From contig CAZAYU010000002.1 in NCBI GenBank assembly GCA_964489445.1, positions 141,020 through 205,019 of the forward strand: a stretch of DNA of 64,000 bases, read 5' to 3'. The notes under the pieces are model-generated. The model did not search any database. It worked only from the letters and a program-made list of their open reading frames with translations, and had not been told where the DNA came from. The stretch is from an uncultured Planctomycetia bacterium (GTDB lineage: Bacteria > Omnitrophota > Gorgyraeia > Duberdicusellales > 4484-171). The stretch's first letter is position 1, and each line of letters starts with the position of its first letter. A program made the translations under genes and the position numbers. Positions 11,508 to 49,725 of this stretch are shown here, piece after piece.

Positions 11508-12179
11508 GTGAAAAAGGTAGTAATTTTTCCATTAGCTTTTTTGTTTTTGGTAGGGATACTTTTTGGTGGCTATAGTTTATTAAAATTGTTTTCTGAGAAA
11601 AACATTCTGGAGCAAGTAATATCTAGATTTTCTTCTGACTCGCGCATAGCCGAAGTAATCGTTACAGACGTTAAAGGAGAAAATAGCTTTAATGAAACTT
11701 TTACAACGATAAAATTTGTTGAATATGATGCTGGGCAGAATGCTCTTCCTCCCAAATATTTTACTTTCCCTGGCAATATCATCCAATTTCAATCATTAGT
11801 TATTCGTTTTGACGATTTTTATGTTAGGACTAAAGATCGGCTAAAAGGGAAAAGTCTCTATTTTCTTTGGAAGGTATTTATGCTTAAAGGATCTGACACG
11901 GTAGAATATGAAATAATTAAAGTAAATGAAGTGCCTGCAGGATATAAGATAAAAAATACTAATAATTATTTTGAAAGAAAACTTTGGGAACGATTTTGGG
12001 AATATGCGTTGAACTCTAGTGGACAACGTAAGAACGGAGTTAAAAGTGCTCAAATAGAAGCTCCCGGAACAAGATTTATTCCTGGAATTTTGTATACTTT
12101 AAGGATAGAACACGATGGAGGAATTAGGATTGATACAGAAAATATCCCACTTATTTTAAAAGGGGAGAGGGTACTATAA
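11508..12179 (+). CDS. Hypothetical N-terminally membrane-anchored protein
   Basis: It is a 223-aa ORF whose first 25 aa form a TM anchor; no recognised motif was found. Confidence 0.4.
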   Translation: MKKVVIFPLAFLFLVGILFGGYSLLKLFSEKNILEQVISRFSSDSRIAEVIVTDVKGENSFNETFTTIKFVEYDAGQNALPPKYFTFPGNIIQFQSLVIRFDDFYVRTKDRLKGKSLYFLWKVFMLKGSDTVEYEIIKVNEVPAGYKIKNTNNYFERKLWERFWEYALNSSGQRKNGVKSAQIEAPGTRFIPGILYTLRIEHDGGIRIDTENIPLILKGERVL

Positions 12180-12230
12180 CTTAAAGGTAAAAAGTAGTTA
12201 GGGCTCAATTTTAACTAAAAGGAGGAGGGT

Positions 12231-13292: not shown

Positions 13293-13365
13293 GCCGAGGT
13301 AGCTCAGACGGTAGAGCGAGGGACTGAAAATCCCTGCGTCAGCGGTTCGATTCCGTTCCTCGGCA
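13293..13365 (+). tRNA. tRNA-Phe (anticodon GAA)
   Basis: It folds by hand into a cloverleaf: acceptor GCCGAGG/CCTCGGC, D-stem GCTC/GAGC, anticodon stem AGGGA/TCCCT with loop CTGAAAA, T-loop TTCGATT. CCA is not encoded. Confidence 0.9.
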
Positions 13366-13480
13366 TTTTTTTATTTTGTCTACACAGCAAAGTTTTTTCT
13401 GTAAGCGAAAAGTGTGTTTTTTAGTTTAAACAATACGGGAACAGCTAATGTAGAAATTCGCCTTACGGCGAAAGCTGTTA

Positions 13481-13505
13481 CCGTTCCTCGGCATTTTTTT
13501 ATTTT
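13481..13505 (+). repeat. Exact 25-nt direct repeat of the tRNA-Phe 3' end plus its T-run (CCGTTCCTCGGCATTTTTTTATTTT); first copy at 13353-13377
   Basis: The two copies are identical and 128 bp apart start to start. A nested hairpin (TTCGCC-TTAC-GGCGAA) lies just upstream of the second copy. Confidence 0.8.
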
Positions 13506-45672: not shown

Positions 45673-46498
45673 TCTTCATAAAGGAGATTGTGGACATGTT
45701 TTAGTTATTGGGGGCTCAAAAGGTCTCACAGGGGCTGTTTGTTTGTCGGCAGAAACAGCTTTAAAAGCTGGAGCAGGGTTAGTAACCGCGGGGATTCCTC
45801 GATCTTTAAATGATATCTTTGAAATTAAACTTACTGAAGTTATGAGCTTGCCATTAGCCGACAATAAAGGGAGCCTTTCTTTAAAGGCTTTTGAACAAAT
45901 TAAACGCTTTTTAAATAAGATTGATGTTATTGTTTTGGGGCCGGGAGCATCTCGTTTGAAAGATACAGAGAATCTAATTATTAAAATTATAAAAGAAATT
46001 GATAAGCCGATGGTTATTGATGCTGATGCTTTAAACGCATTAGCTGATAATCTTGATGTGTTAGACATACGGAAAACAAAACAAATAGTTTTAACACCAC
46101 ATTTGGGTGAATTCTCTCGGTTAATTAACACAGAAAAGGAAGCGATAAAAAAAATAAAGAGAGAGCTTGTAAAAGAGTTCGCACTTCGCTATAATCTAAT
46201 TCTTGTGTTAAAGGGCCATGCGACATTAGTTACTGACGGAAAGAAGATATATAAAAATTGCACTGGTAATCCTGGTATGGCTACGGCTGGCACGGGGGAT
46301 GTTTTGTGCGGTATGATTGCTGGAGTTATTTCTCAAGGTGTTCATTGCCTGGAAGCTGCTAAATTTGGCGTTTATTTGCATGGGCTATGTGGCGATTTAG
46401 CAGCGAAGAAAAAAACAGAAACCTGTTTATTGGCTTCTGATTTAATTGAGTGTCTACCAGAAGCTGTAAAAAAAGCAAGAAAATTTCTGCCGGCGTAG
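45626..46498 (+). CDS. nnr: ADP-dependent NAD(P)H-hydrate dehydratase (YjeF C-terminal/Nnr)
   Basis: HKGDCGHVLVIGGSKGLTGAV, TPHLGEFSRL and GNPGMATAGTGDVLCGMIAG were seen. The start is uncertain (it overlaps acpS), and the stop lies inside tRNA-Thr. Confidence 0.75.
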   Translation: MKIMQLPVRLRKRKSDLHKGDCGHVLVIGGSKGLTGAVCLSAETALKAGAGLVTAGIPRSLNDIFEIKLTEVMSLPLADNKGSLSLKAFEQIKRFLNKIDVIVLGPGASRLKDTENLIIKIIKEIDKPMVIDADALNALADNLDVLDIRKTKQIVLTPHLGEFSRLINTEKEAIKKIKRELVKEFALRYNLILVLKGHATLVTDGKKIYKNCTGNPGMATAGTGDVLCGMIAGVISQGVHCLEAAKFGVYLHGLCGDLAAKKKTETCLLASDLIECLPEAVKKARKFLPA

Positions 46499-46561
46499 CT
46501 CAATTGGCAGAGCACCTCACTTGTAATGAGGATGTTGGGGGTTCAATTCCTCTCGCCGGCT
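46489..46561 (+). tRNA. tRNA-Thr (anticodon TGT)
   Basis: It folds by hand: acceptor GCCGGCG/CGCCGGC, anticodon stem CCTCA/TGAGG with loop CTTGTAA, T-loop TTCAATT. Confidence 0.8.
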
Positions 46562-46657
46562 TATAAAGCTGGTAAGATTTCTGCATAGTTTAAGTTTGGG
46601 CTCTCTGAAATTCAAGTTGAACTATAATATATTGAGTAAGAGTTATATGCCAGTAAC

Positions 46658-46740
46658 GGGCAGGTTCCTGAGTGGTCAAAGGGGACAGACTGTAAATCTG
46701 TTGCGCTTGCGCTTCGGGGGTTCAAATCCTCCCCTGCCCA
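46658..46740 (+). tRNA. tRNA-Tyr (anticodon GTA), type II with long variable arm
   Basis: It matches the bacterial tRNA-Tyr pattern (GG.CAGGTTCC.GAG.GG.CAAAGG..CAGACTGTAAATCTG..long arm..GGTTCAAATCC). The anticodon loop is CTGTAAA. Confidence 0.85.
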
Positions 46741-47075
46741 TACTTTTAGTTAGTGAGTGAAGTTATTTGACAGTAAGTAGGGGAATGGTAGTTACAAAGC
46801 AACATTCATTTGGATGCAACAGTCAATTCTGTTTAACTTCGCCTTTGGCGAAGGTTGCATACAAATTCTCCCCTGCCTATACTTTTACCTGGTACGTAAA
46901 GTTGTTTGACAGTAAGTAGGGGAATGGTAGTTACAAAGCAACATTCATTTGGATGCAACAGTTAATTCTGGTTAATTCCGCCTTTGGCGGAAGTTGCACG
47001 CAAATCCTCCCCTGCTCATACTATTTTCGTGTGTGAAGCTATTTTTGAGAATAGAGGGTAGTAACTAATTAGAGG
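46739..47075 (+). repeat. Two complete plus one partial tandem 139-bp repeats derived from tRNA-Tyr
   Basis: Unit 1 is 46739-46877 and unit 2 is 46878-47016, at ~90% identity. Each ends in a tRNA-Tyr 3'-end-like CAAAT(C/T)CTCCCCTGC(C/T)(C/T)A. The internal 7-bp hairpin CTTCGCC-TTT-GGCGAAG becomes TTCCGCC-TTT-GGCGGAA in unit 2 through two compensatory pair changes. Confidence 0.7.
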
Positions 47076-47082
47076 ACAATAA

Positions 47083-47439
47083 ATGACAGACAATACTAAA
47101 GATGTGCGGCGATTCTTAAGAATTCCGAAATCTTTATTAGTACAGTATAAGCTGCTGAACACTAGCTTATTTAAAGAATTTAACACTGCTGATATTAGCC
47201 AAGGAGGAGTACGATTCTTTGTTAAGGGCCAGGTTTTAGAAAATGCTTTATTGATAATCAGCATTCGTTTGGAAAAGATTGCTTATCCTTTGAACGCGAT
47301 GGTAAGAGTAAAATGGGTTAAAAAAGTGCTCGATAACAATTATTGCGAAGTAGGAGCAGAATTTATTAATTTACCTCCGGAATCTTTTGCAGAGCTTAAT
47401 AGATATTTAGAAAATGCTAACATCAATAAAGAAGGGTAA
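47083..47439 (+). CDS. Stand-alone PilZ-domain protein (c-di-GMP effector candidate)
   Basis: It has RRFLRIP (RxxxR) and DISQGGVRF (DxSxxG) and is 118 aa. Confidence 0.65.
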   Translation: MTDNTKDVRRFLRIPKSLLVQYKLLNTSLFKEFNTADISQGGVRFFVKGQVLENALLIISIRLEKIAYPLNAMVRVKWVKKVLDNNYCEVGAEFINLPPESFAELNRYLENANINKEG

Positions 47440-47494: not shown

Positions 47495-47565
47495 GCGGGC
47501 GTAGTTCAGCGGCAGAACACAGGCCTTCCAAGCCTGTTACGGCGGTTCGATTCCGCTCGCCCGCT
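47495..47565 (+). tRNA. tRNA-Gly (anticodon TCC)
   Basis: It folds by hand: acceptor GCGGGCG/CGCCCGC, anticodon stem CAGGC/GCCTG with loop CTTCCAA, T-loop TTCGATT. Confidence 0.85.
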
Positions 47566-48698: not shown

Positions 48699-48879
48699 AA
48701 ATCTCAAAACCCTCATGTATTTAAAATATAACATGTTAAAAGTATTTTTTCAAGTCGTTGACTCTAAATTATTGTAAAAATTATTTTTTGTTTATCTTGA
48801 TACATTGTTTTGCCCGTGATAGAATTTTTTCGGTTATTATTGGTGGGAATAAAAGGTAAAAAAGGAGGTGTTTGTGAGG

Positions 48880-49725
48880 ATGCAGAAAAGTATGAAAGTT
48901 TTTGTGTTTTTTTTAGCGATTATTTCTTTTGTTTTTTTAGCAGAAGCAAAACCGAATAAAGGTGGATCTCGCTCAAAAGGTGGACGAAAAAATAAACAAT
49001 CTAGTTCGCGAAGCAAACAGCAAGGAAAATCCGGTGGAAGTAAAGGCAAATCAAGCAATTTTAAAAGAGGTAAGCAGGAAGAAGCTGCAGGTAGACGGAG
49101 TAGTTCAAGCAATTCTAGGGGCGGACAGCATGGTGGCCCGGGAAGCCCAAAAGGCAACAAGCAAGACAATTCAGGCAGGCCTAAAGATTCAAGAAGAGGG
49201 CAATCTGGCAGTATGGATGAGTCATCGCAGGGAGGAAGATTCAAACAAGGCGATCGCAATAGTGATGGCTCTATAGATAAAAAAGAGATGCGGATGGATA
49301 AAAAGCGAGAGCAAAATCAGAGATCGCAAGTAAATACTTCTTGGGAGAAAAGAGCAGATCGCAACCAAGATGGACAGGTAGACAGAAAAGAAATGCAGAT
49401 GCGTAAAGAAAAAATGCAGGAGCGTTCTCAAGTAGATAAACCCTGGGAAGAAAGAGCTGATCACAATCAAGATGGAGTAGTTGATAAAAATGAAATGGAC
49501 ATGCATAAACAGAAAATGCAGGAACATTCCCAAGTAGATAAACCAGGTGGAGAAAGAGCTGATCGCAATCAGGATGGAGAGGTAGACAAGAAAGAAACTA
49601 ATATGCAGAAAGAGCATATGCGGGAAAAATCAAAAGTAGATAAGCCTTGGGAAAAAAAGGCAGATCGTAATCAGGATGGGCAAGTAGATAAAAAAGAAAT
49701 AAACATGTGGAAAGAAAGAAAGTAG
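48880..49725 (+). CDS. Secreted, low-complexity (S/G/K/R-rich) protein with five tandem canonical EF-hand Ca2+-binding loops
   Basis: It has a signal peptide (MQKSMKVFVFFLAIISFVFLAEA) after GGAGGTG. The 12-residue loops DRNSDGSIDKKE, DRNQDGQVDRKE, DHNQDGVVDKNE, DRNQDGEVDKKE and DRNQDGQVDKKE each sit inside a ~37-aa repeat. The DNA shows a matching ~111-bp tandem periodicity. Confidence 0.65.
   Translation: MQKSMKVFVFFLAIISFVFLAEAKPNKGGSRSKGGRKNKQSSSRSKQQGKSGGSKGKSSNFKRGKQEEAAGRRSSSSNSRGGQHGGPGSPKGNKQDNSGRPKDSRRGQSGSMDESSQGGRFKQGDRNSDGSIDKKEMRMDKKREQNQRSQVNTSWEKRADRNQDGQVDRKEMQMRKEKMQERSQVDKPWEERADHNQDGVVDKNEMDMHKQKMQEHSQVDKPGGERADRNQDGEVDKKETNMQKEHMREKSKVDKPWEKKADRNQDGQVDKKEINMWKERK

Follow-up and report, generated by a model that had tools for sequence, protein, structure and literature searches.

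A 64,000-nucleotide stretch of contig CAZAYU010000002.1, from an uncultured bacterium of the Omnitrophota, carries a tRNA-Tyr gene that is followed directly, in the same orientation, by tandem units of 139 nt, each ending with a near-copy of the tRNA 3′ end. These units were studied within the whole stretch (the window, 64 kb, whose numbering is used for its features throughout) and at related loci, which come from related genomes or contigs and carry L-numbers (L002, L055 and so on). On balance we incline to the view that the units are tRNA-linked repeats (TLRs), which are co-transcribed with the tRNA, cut out by tRNA 3′-end processing and multiply at the repeated tRNA end.

The tRNA cluster lies on the forward strand and has the order Thr-Tyr-(units)-PilZ-Gly. 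It opens with tRNA-Thr(TGT) at 46489-46561, which was called by ARAGORN and by Rfam (68.6 bits) and has no linked unit here, whereas Thr-linked units are present in the relatives L055 and L069. The first 10 nt of this tRNA (46489-46498) are overlapped by the last codons and the stop of the NAD(P)H-hydrate dehydratase gene (nnr), which ends at 46498. A promoter-like site at 46605-46633, a weak consensus match only, precedes tRNA-Tyr(GTA) at 46658-46740. The latter gene is intact according to ARAGORN and Rfam and does not encode CCA. Downstream of the units follow an open reading frame (ORF) of 118 aa with a PilZ domain (47083-47439; Pfam PF07238, E = 2e-12), which is probably part of the same transcript as the tRNA cluster, and tRNA-Gly(TCC) at 47495-47565 (ARAGORN), the downstream end of the cluster.

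The sequence that recurs at the end of each unit is that of the last 18 nt of tRNA-Tyr (C56 to A73, 46723-46740), which read CAAATCCTCCCCTGCCCA. Tandem Repeats Finder reported a period of 139 bp with 2.2 copies and 87% matches between 46723 and 47022. With the register counted from the discriminator base of tRNA-Tyr, unit 1 occupies 46741-46879 (139 nt; 5′ part 46741-46807, core 46808-46879) and unit 2 occupies 46880-47018 (139 nt, all parts offset by 139 nt). A partial third copy, consisting of the 5′ part only, starts at 47019 and runs up to about 47075 into the ribosome-binding site of the PilZ-domain ORF; it is about 55-60 nt long and about 65% identical. A preliminary description of this DNA had counted two and a half units. 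The tandem 139-bp repeats are as it described them, but the copy number is nearer 2.4, with two full units and a partial one of about 57 nt. Its statement that the tRNA-Tyr 3′ end is copied at the end of each unit holds for near-copies: the end of unit 1 (46862-46879, CAAATTCTCCCCTGCCTA) is identical to the tRNA at 16 of 18 nt and the end of unit 2 (47001-47018, CAAATCCTCCCCTGCTCA) at 17 of 18 nt. Compared with each other, the two full units show 18 differences over 139 positions (87.1% identity).

Another unit, located outside the part covered by the preliminary description, was found behind tRNA-Phe(GAA), which was called by ARAGORN at 13293-13365 on the forward strand. The linked unit is of a short type (128 nt, 13366-13493, forward strand). 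Its 3′ part consists, in this order, of ACGG (13435-13438), G, AACAGC, TAATGTAGAAA, the hairpin TTCGCC TTAC GGCGAA (13457-13472), A, GCTGTT, A and the tRNA-end copy (13481-13493), which matches the last 13 nt of tRNA-Phe exactly. After the unit comes the same 12-nt T-rich trailer that follows tRNA-Phe.

Predicted fold of the units and its covariation

Minimum free energy (MFE) folding predicted one long branched hairpin of the same layout for all units. The basal stem is formed by a 5′ segment of the unit and the tRNA-derived 3′ strand, which comprises the 3′ half of the T-loop, the 3′ strand of the T-stem, the 3′ strand of the acceptor stem and the discriminator. Above the basal stem lie P1 and the 5-bp helix P2, followed by either a purine-rich linker or an additional hairpin; P3, which is rich in GC, is stacked directly on P2. 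In P1, AUUUG-G-AUG is paired with CAU-A-CAAAU, and the T-loop remnant is part of the latter strand.

For unit 1, the MFE folds place the basal-stem 5′ strand GTAGGGGA at 46777-46784, paired with the tRNA-derived TCCCCTGC at 46869-46876 (duplex energy z = -3.1 compared to shuffles). The 5′ strands of P1 (ATTTGGATG) and P2 (GCAAC) were assigned to 46808-46820 by the RNAalifold consensus and the covariation counts, with their partner strands GTTGC and CATACAAAT at 46854-46866; CAAAT in the 3′ strand of P1 is the 3′ half of the tRNA T-loop. P3 of unit 1 is the hairpin CTTCGCC TTT GGCGAAG at 46837-46853, which had been called variable-arm-like in the preliminary description. The corresponding elements of unit 2 are the basal 5′ strand at 46916-46923, P1/P2 at 46947-46959 and the P3 hairpin TTCCGCC TTT GGCGGAA at 46976-46992. 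As had been noticed before, the only differences between the 7-bp hairpins of the two units are two double changes that keep the pairing, C-G to T-A and T-A to C-G. If 18 differences are spread randomly over 139 nt, double-side changes are expected in at least two of the seven hairpin pairs with P = 0.004, even when the new bases are not yet required to pair.

The covariation analysis comprised 15 units, and an earlier version with 13 sequences was also run. From a plain, unfitted MAFFT alignment of the 15 unit cores, RNAalifold predicted P1, P2 and P3. In this alignment 92.3% of the cells pair in P1-P2-P3, compared to 26-47% with slid partners. Double-side substitutions were observed in 14 of the 19 pairs (45 cells), and none of 500 shuffles reached the covariation score. 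The two P3 pairs that distinguish unit 1 from unit 2 switch independently among unit 1, unit 2, L055 and L064. Moreover, the 5′ strand of P1 covaries with the T-loop: AUUUG/CAAAU is found in Tyr units and UUCG/CGAA in Pro units, whose T-loop reads CGAAU. Complementarity of the 5′ flank to the tRNA-derived strand is seen in 13 of the 15 units (mean z over all 15 = -1.8 compared to shuffles), and the basal 5′ strand matches the tRNA end that is present, with GGGGA for Tyr, GGAGGGC for Pro (L059), ACGG for Phe and CGAGGG for Thr. The covariation strongly suggests that selection acts on the structure of the units. The preliminary description had proposed selection on RNA structure. A structural constraint is borne out by the 15 homologous units, and the hairpin covariation holds in related genomes, although the constraint may act on DNA hairpins rather than on RNA.

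Hardly any variation is seen in the non-tRNA part of P1 (AUAUUUGGAUG...CAUAC), which includes a conserved purine-purine mismatch, even between lineages in which the flanking protein is only 60-67% identical. This near-invariance suggests that this part of P1 may be recognised by a sequence-specific partner. The purine-rich linker is complementary to the U-rich trailer in L041, L042 and L043, where both are of low complexity, and this complementarity is absent in the window units.

The array could also have arisen by tandem duplication of the whole tRNA-Tyr gene with its leader, with subsequent decay to pseudo-tRNAs or tRNA-like non-coding RNAs (ncRNAs). This was the view of the preliminary description, which regarded the units as degenerate tRNA-Tyr duplicates with remnants of the D-, anticodon- and variable arms. 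The tRNA-derived last 18 nt agree with it, but they are the only part of the unit that is clearly tRNA-derived. ARAGORN called no tRNA in the units and neither did the Rfam tRNA model (RF00005), even at E ≤ 10, and local alignments of the unit body with the tRNA body scored 12-13, which is the level of shuffled sequences (13.1 ± 2.1). With no cloverleaf call and an alignment score equal to the shuffle mean, the units were classified neither as tRNAs nor as tRNA pseudogenes, and the proposed arm remnants have no statistical support. The "anticodon-like" hairpin is broken or absent in most relatives. P3 is found at the same place in units on tRNA-Phe, tRNA-Thr and tRNA-Pro, all three of them tRNAs without a long variable arm, and is thus a feature of the element family and not a relic of tRNA-Tyr; in fact the whole P2-linker-P3 core is the same on Phe, Thr and Pro ends. 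In addition, the register of the basal stem straddles the junction of T-stem and acceptor stem, so that no cloverleaf is formed.

Two further observations could point to a duplicated tRNA gene. The 5′ part of the window unit is similar to the 27 nt that precede tRNA-Tyr (score 27 compared to 14 ± 2.6, p about 0.001-0.003), and in L036 and L002 the basal 5′ strand is similar to the 5′ strand of the acceptor stem (GGCAG.. and GGCAAGG). However, the leader similarity reached p < 0.05 in only three of 18 units (window, L002 and L058), with p ≥ 0.37 in the other 15, and whole-gene duplication was therefore rejected as a general origin. An ancient duplication of tRNA-Tyr is possible as the starting point of the family. 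As a description of the present structure, the duplication of a whole tRNA is largely refuted, and we regard it as very improbable.

Occurrence and turnover in related lineages

Related loci were collected as syntenic regions, fetched via the upstream nnr gene, and by one metagenome pattern scan. The nnr protein of the window has its best identities (65-80%) to metagenome-assembled genomes of Candidatus Omnitrophota, and the conserved gene order is nnr - tRNA-Thr - tRNA-Tyr - unit - tRNA-Gly - gpsA. Members of the unit family were found in at least 14 Candidatus Omnitrophota-like lineages, in every case immediately behind a tRNA, which is Tyr, Pro, Thr or Phe. A homologous unit directly after tRNA-Tyr was found in 12 of the 19 Omnitrophota-like lineages sampled, and units of the same build occur on tRNA-Pro in L058, L059 and L004 and on tRNA-Thr in L055 and L069. 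The modules are 120-145 nt long, rarely longer, have the same orientation as the tRNA and are present in one or two full copies per locus, plus partial copies. All 20 listed units begin at the base after the discriminator of the tRNA or of the preceding unit. For 11 units from other genomes, the 3′ stretch identical to the upstream tRNA is exactly 18 nt long (C56 to A73), and for three short-type units (Phe and Thr) it is exactly 13 nt. This copy always carries the tRNA variant of its own genome (CCTTCC, CTGTCC, CCTTCTC and Pro variants).

Searches with the covariance model R1 and with nhmmer, which covered the window (64 kb) and about 200 kb from related loci (265 kb for the covariance model), detected copies at tRNA 3′ ends only. 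Since all copies sit at tRNA 3′ ends in this sequence, a miniature inverted-repeat transposable element or another dispersed palindromic repeat was rejected. Four matches of the pattern scan (L037, L038, L039 and L044) were discarded as chance matches with neither an adjoining tRNA-Tyr nor an element context.

Several variants of the units were observed. At L004 (9652-9825), tRNA-Pro is followed by two shorter units of 90 and 84 nt with a different interior, consisting of a hairpin CCGCC...GGCGG and then UCAGnn...nnCUGA. Their basal stem is complementary to the Pro 3′ strand and they end with slightly diverged tRNA-Pro ends. Units in the window, L002, L004, L041, L042, L055 and L058, and also the Phe unit of the window, share a short motif, UUUUAGUU(U/A)G, in their 5′ part. 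In most Tyr units it adjoins the tRNA, and in Pro and Phe units its position is shifted inwards by 25-55 nt. Mirror-image units are present upstream of tRNA-Gly at L068 (11113-11234) and L002 (7187-7383). These repeats of about 125 nt begin with a copy of the leader and the first 21 nt of tRNA-Gly (GYGGGTGTAGTTCAATGGTAG) and have a stem CAAUAAU/AUUAUUG (L068) or CAACGAU/AUCGUUG (L002) around the hairpin CUCGCC-GAA(A)-GGCGAG. They may be a 5′-end-capped counterpart of the 3′ units.

The copy number differs between relatives, being 2.4 in the window and 1.3 in its closest relative L055 (80% protein identity), which has one full unit and a partial one of 47 nt. The L048 contig, which is one single-nucleotide polymorphism away from the window, contains a single clean chimera of unit 1 and unit 2, which is either the product of an unequal crossover or an assembly collapse; as a repeat collapse is possible, it was not used as proof of copy-number variation. 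The loci L002, L062 and L059 (Pro) have a functional tRNA without CCA and a distal tRNA-end copy that is followed by CCA, and unit-free relatives encode CCA at the tRNA itself. Likewise, the trailer after the Pro unit of L059, CCAAATG, is the trailer of the unit-free tRNA-Pro of the window. This is the pattern of filled and empty sites, in which the unit entered between the discriminator and the old CCA or trailer or, equally, in the T-loop. Modules are also shared between different tRNAs: the short type is found on Phe in the window and on Thr in L055 and L069, and a Tyr-type module is found on Pro in L058, where its 5′ flank fits the Tyr end better than its own (-12.5 compared to -8.5 kcal/mol).

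Such a footprint raises an explanation on the DNA level. The units would be an insertion element or what is left of one, either a miniature non-autonomous element that duplicates a target of 13-18 bp or serial att residues of integrase-mediated integrations. The hairpin would then be kept because the mobility machinery recognises the DNA, and the RNA would be a by-product. Integrative elements at tRNA genes (attL/attR; tycheposon-type islands) are flanked by a direct repeat of the tRNA 3′ part. The same arrangement is seen here, with the tRNA 3′ end repeated around an insert of about 110 nt. The repeat begins in the T-loop/T-stem, and the original 3′ end, with the ancestral CCA or trailer, is displaced to the distal copy. 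The T-loop is said, following Williams in 2002, to be a classic crossover position of integrases. Filled sites (L059 and L002) can be compared with empty ones (the tRNA-Pro of the window and L003). The patchy presence among close relatives, the same module type on Phe here and Thr in L055, the Tyr-type module that still fits the Tyr end on Pro in L058, the insertions in the Tyr-Gly spacer (group I intron, extra ORFs, PilZ), the almost purely Watson-Crick covariation and the equal folding of both DNA strands all agree with this explanation as well.

On the other hand, no integrase was found beside any unit in the gene tables of 14 loci, and no transposase gene adjoins a unit. The only recombinase-like gene near any of these tRNAs encodes a Y1 transposase (IS200/IS605-type or REP-associated; L062 15241-15915, minus strand). 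It lies about 80 nt downstream of a tRNA-Pro with no linked unit and is probably unrelated to the units. An insert of this size is far too small for cargo, and dispersed copies are missing from the 265 kb searched with the covariance model. Viral contigs, phage records and plasmid records contained no real match, and a phage or plasmid origin was rejected on this basis; the single pattern match in a viral contig (L071) is a GC-rich stretch without a tRNA and without the element hairpin. Unlike an integrative element, the unit has a covarying hairpin that uses the repeat as one of its strands. An att remnant gives no reason why the 5′ segment stays complementary to the tRNA-derived strand, nor why the 5′ strand of P1 covaries with the T-loop 50-60 nt away, and thus the pairing of the captured tRNA strand is not explained by a purely DNA-level process. 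We consider such a process unlikely as the full explanation, although it is compatible with the TLR interpretation and may well describe the origin of the units rather than their present role.

The spacer between tRNA-Tyr and tRNA-Gly itself looks like an insertion hotspot. The PilZ-domain ORF was found at this position only in the window lineage and in L055; other lineages have different insertions in this spacer or none, and in relatives the unit lies directly between the two tRNAs. In four Omnitrophota lineages, a group I intron interrupts the anticodon loop of tRNA-Tyr (CTGT|...G|AAATC; L009 4608-4941; L040, minus strand; L062 11598-11931; L069 about 11820-12181); it matched Intron_gpI of Rfam with 84.7 bits in L062. 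The split tRNA-Tyr is closely preceded by an ORF of about 200-280 aa, which extends into the 5′ exon and has no significant match in Pfam, and in L069 this ORF is flanked by a duplicated D-arm segment of the tRNA. Further downstream in the window (48868-49725), a 285-aa protein is encoded whose N-terminus looks like a signal sequence and which contains about five repeats in tandem, similar to calcium-binding loops (D-R-N-Q-D-G-x-V-D-K-K-E); the ORF was called as 281 aa in some near-identical contigs (L047, L048 and L050).

Comparison with tRNA-linked repeats of Escherichia coli

The hallmark of the TLR class is a 3′ end of 18-19 bp that is identical to the upstream tRNA or rRNA gene, and in E. 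coli 22 copies at 10 loci, on several different tRNAs, belong to it (PMC8144298). The closest known analogue of the units, not mentioned in the preliminary description, belongs to this class: the RtT repeats at tyrT-tyrV (PMC8144298, citing Egan & Landy 1978, Rudd 1999 and Bosl & Kersten 1991). For three members that follow rRNA operons, transcription and processing as well as binding to Hfq and CsrA are reported, and it was suggested by the authors that the repeated end is recognised by a processing enzyme (PMC8144298).

The RtT repeats were analysed in the same way as the units of the window. The tyrT-tyrV operon has a period of 178 bp with 3.1 copies after tyrV and one additional copy between tyrT and tyrV, and the Rfam model RF00391 scored 133-138 bits on the four copies. 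Each copy ends in a run of 19 nt that is identical to tRNA-Tyr and starts in the T-loop, and the trailer of the tRNA is repeated after each copy. The Rfam consensus of RtT has a basal stem with a tRNA-derived 3′ strand, which encloses two hairpins, and rttR is annotated as a 171-nt RNA abutting tyrV.

The Omnitrophota units share these features. They lie directly downstream of a tRNA in a tRNA operon, in the same orientation, as single copies or short tandem arrays (139 bp × 2.4 here compared to 178 bp × 3.1), with one or two full copies per locus compared to the one to five typical of the class. In both groups the last 18-19 nt are the 3′ end of the upstream tRNA, with the identity beginning in the T-loop and the trailer being repeated; the identity is exact over 18 nt in the 11 units from other genomes and over 13 nt in the Phe and Thr units, and is 16/18 and 17/18 in the window array. 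A basal helix of a 5′ segment and the tRNA-derived 3′ strand encloses the internal hairpins, and the class is found on several tRNAs, which here are Tyr, Pro, Thr and Phe. The differences are the phylum (Candidatus Omnitrophota instead of Enterobacteria), the smaller length of the units, their own conserved P1 motif and the missing CCA in the repeated end, which results from the tRNA gene not encoding CCA. Moreover, RF00391 had no match at E ≤ 10 on the Tyr, Thr and Phe units, and no shared sequence is evident. At permissive thresholds the Rfam search with these units matched true tRNAs only, with no ribozyme and no RtT among the matches. Because the hallmark, the position and the architecture are those of TLRs while the RtT model is not matched, we classify the units as a variant of the TLR class. 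In layout they are a distant counterpart of the TLRs of E. coli, and homology and convergence would both fit. That they form a TLR-like family of structured elements is, in our view, highly probable.

RrA, RrB and RrF are small RNAs of the TLR family that are encoded downstream of 5S rRNA in the rrn operons of E. coli, between two terminators. They are made by read-through, and their end, a copy of the 3′ end of the upstream stable RNA, has been proposed to direct the same processing enzyme to them; binding to Hfq and CsrA occurs through GGA motifs (PMC8144298). In contrast to these 5S rRNA-linked RNAs, the Omnitrophota units are linked to tRNAs, and the GGAUG that is conserved in their P1 is base-paired.

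The units also resemble, in concept, RNAs that are not tRNAs themselves but are defined by tRNA-type processing signals or derive from the spacer of a tRNA operon. Examples are mascRNA, released from MALAT1, and 3′ETS-leuZ, a spacer RNA of the E. coli glyW-cysT-leuZ operon, both of which are released by tRNA-processing enzymes. However, mascRNA mimics a complete cloverleaf, and the only matches of its Rfam model here were at chance level, on true tRNAs. We know of no tRNA-end copy in 3′ETS-leuZ.

Proposed transcription and processing

No promoter-like sites were detected inside the units. TTGACA does occur in the window units, but with no acceptable -10 element, and the motif is not conserved in relatives, so that a promoter of their own was rejected. 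Terminator-like sites were absent on the forward strand between 46300 and 47700, where P3 is followed by the 3′ strand of P2, and an intrinsic terminator on this strand was rejected as well. Since the units appear to have neither promoter nor terminator of their own, we infer that they are transcribed together with the tRNA-Thr/Tyr cluster, and transcription would probably continue through the PilZ-domain ORF and tRNA-Gly. An RNase Z-type enzyme that trims the CCA-less tRNA-Tyr after the discriminator could also cut after each tRNA-end copy. By analogy with the rtT RNA of the E. coli tyrT operon, which is reported to be processed to a discrete RNA, and with RrB, this cleavage would release discrete hairpin RNAs of about 139 nt. 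New units would enter by insertion between the discriminator and the ancestral CCA or trailer, and their copy number could change via unequal crossover at the repeated tRNA end. Within this scheme, we judge the release of a processed RNA about as probable as its absence.

Alternatively, the units could act only in cis, with no useful RNA being released. They might be a spacer that insulates tRNA folding or aids the upstream tRNA in its 3′ maturation, in which case pairing of the additional tRNA-end copy would be selected because it prevents mispairing with the tRNA 5′ half. Otherwise, the units might terminate antisense transcription into the tRNA genes. RtT is classed as cis-regulatory in Rfam, and a helix that sequesters the duplicated 3′ strand would prevent interference with tRNA folding, which would explain the complementarity of the basal stem. 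A terminator on the minus strand finds some agreement, as P3 together with the complement of the purine-rich linker is terminator-like in L042 (CTTCGGCGAAGCCGAAG-TTTTTCTTT), in the Tyr unit of L069 and in the Thr unit of L055. However, neither the window units nor most of the two-hairpin members have the T-run on the minus strand, and such a terminator was rejected as a general role since it fits only some members. No terminator was found on the forward strand either. Insulation alone leaves the invariant P1 sequence and the conserved P2 and P3 unexplained, and many relatives lack any unit. Taken together, we consider a role in cis only quite improbable. The options that had been put forward in the preliminary description, an ncRNA, a processing element of the tRNA cluster or serial duplications at a tRNA hotspot, are each possible.

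A number of observations weigh against units that are co-transcribed and processed into RNA. Transcription, cleavage after the tRNA-end copy and stability of the RNA are all inferred. No unit is present at tRNA-Tyr in seven of the 19 lineages, and the occurrence is patchy even among close relatives; a dispensable or selfish element therefore fits as well as a useful RNA. The pairs of P1-P3 are almost purely Watson-Crick, with one G-U cell in about 263 paired cells, and both strands fold equally well (summed MFE -539 compared to -546 kcal/mol), so that DNA hairpins, or both strands, could be what is constrained. Between the basal stem and the discriminator, 2-6 nt are usually left unpaired, and the stem is out of the tRNA register, which makes acceptance by RNase Z or RNase P uncertain. 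When the whole 418-nt array is folded, pairings between neighbouring units compete with the local hairpins, and this fold was set aside as a guide to the local structure. The window's own units carry one or two mutations in their tRNA-end copy. Finally, the TLRs in tRNA operons of E. coli have no demonstrated function, and the phenotype originally attributed to rtT was retracted (PMC8144298).

Repeats linked to tRNAs have been known in E. coli since 1978 (PMC8144298). A full-text search for "tRNA-linked repeats" yielded PMC8144298 and an editorial only, and in the literature searched these repeats were described from no organisms other than E. coli and further enterobacteria. Our analysis finds this design also in an uncultivated phylum that is only distantly related: directly behind the tRNA stands a branched hairpin, the base of which incorporates a duplicate of the tRNA 3′ end. 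The covariation, the adaptation to four different tRNAs and the insertion-like footprint indicate that this architecture is under selection and recurrent. This is the first comparative evidence we have found that a TLR-type architecture is under selection. It provides a comparative data set for elements of this type and draws attention to intergenic repeats that are ignored in the annotation of candidate phyla.

A further-reaching idea, which we regard as doubtful, is that TLRs are a general class of self-propagating modules across phyla that capture the 3′ end of whichever tRNA they land behind. If this were true, the captured tRNA end would serve two purposes: the spread of the DNA, by insertion or recombination and by hopping between Tyr, Pro, Thr and Phe genes, and the excision of the module as a stable RNA by tRNA-maturation enzymes. 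The invariant P1 motif would then be a candidate binding site for a partner. In a more extreme version, the 3′ end of 13-18 nt that is identical to the tRNA would guide an RNA-guided insertion or homing system.

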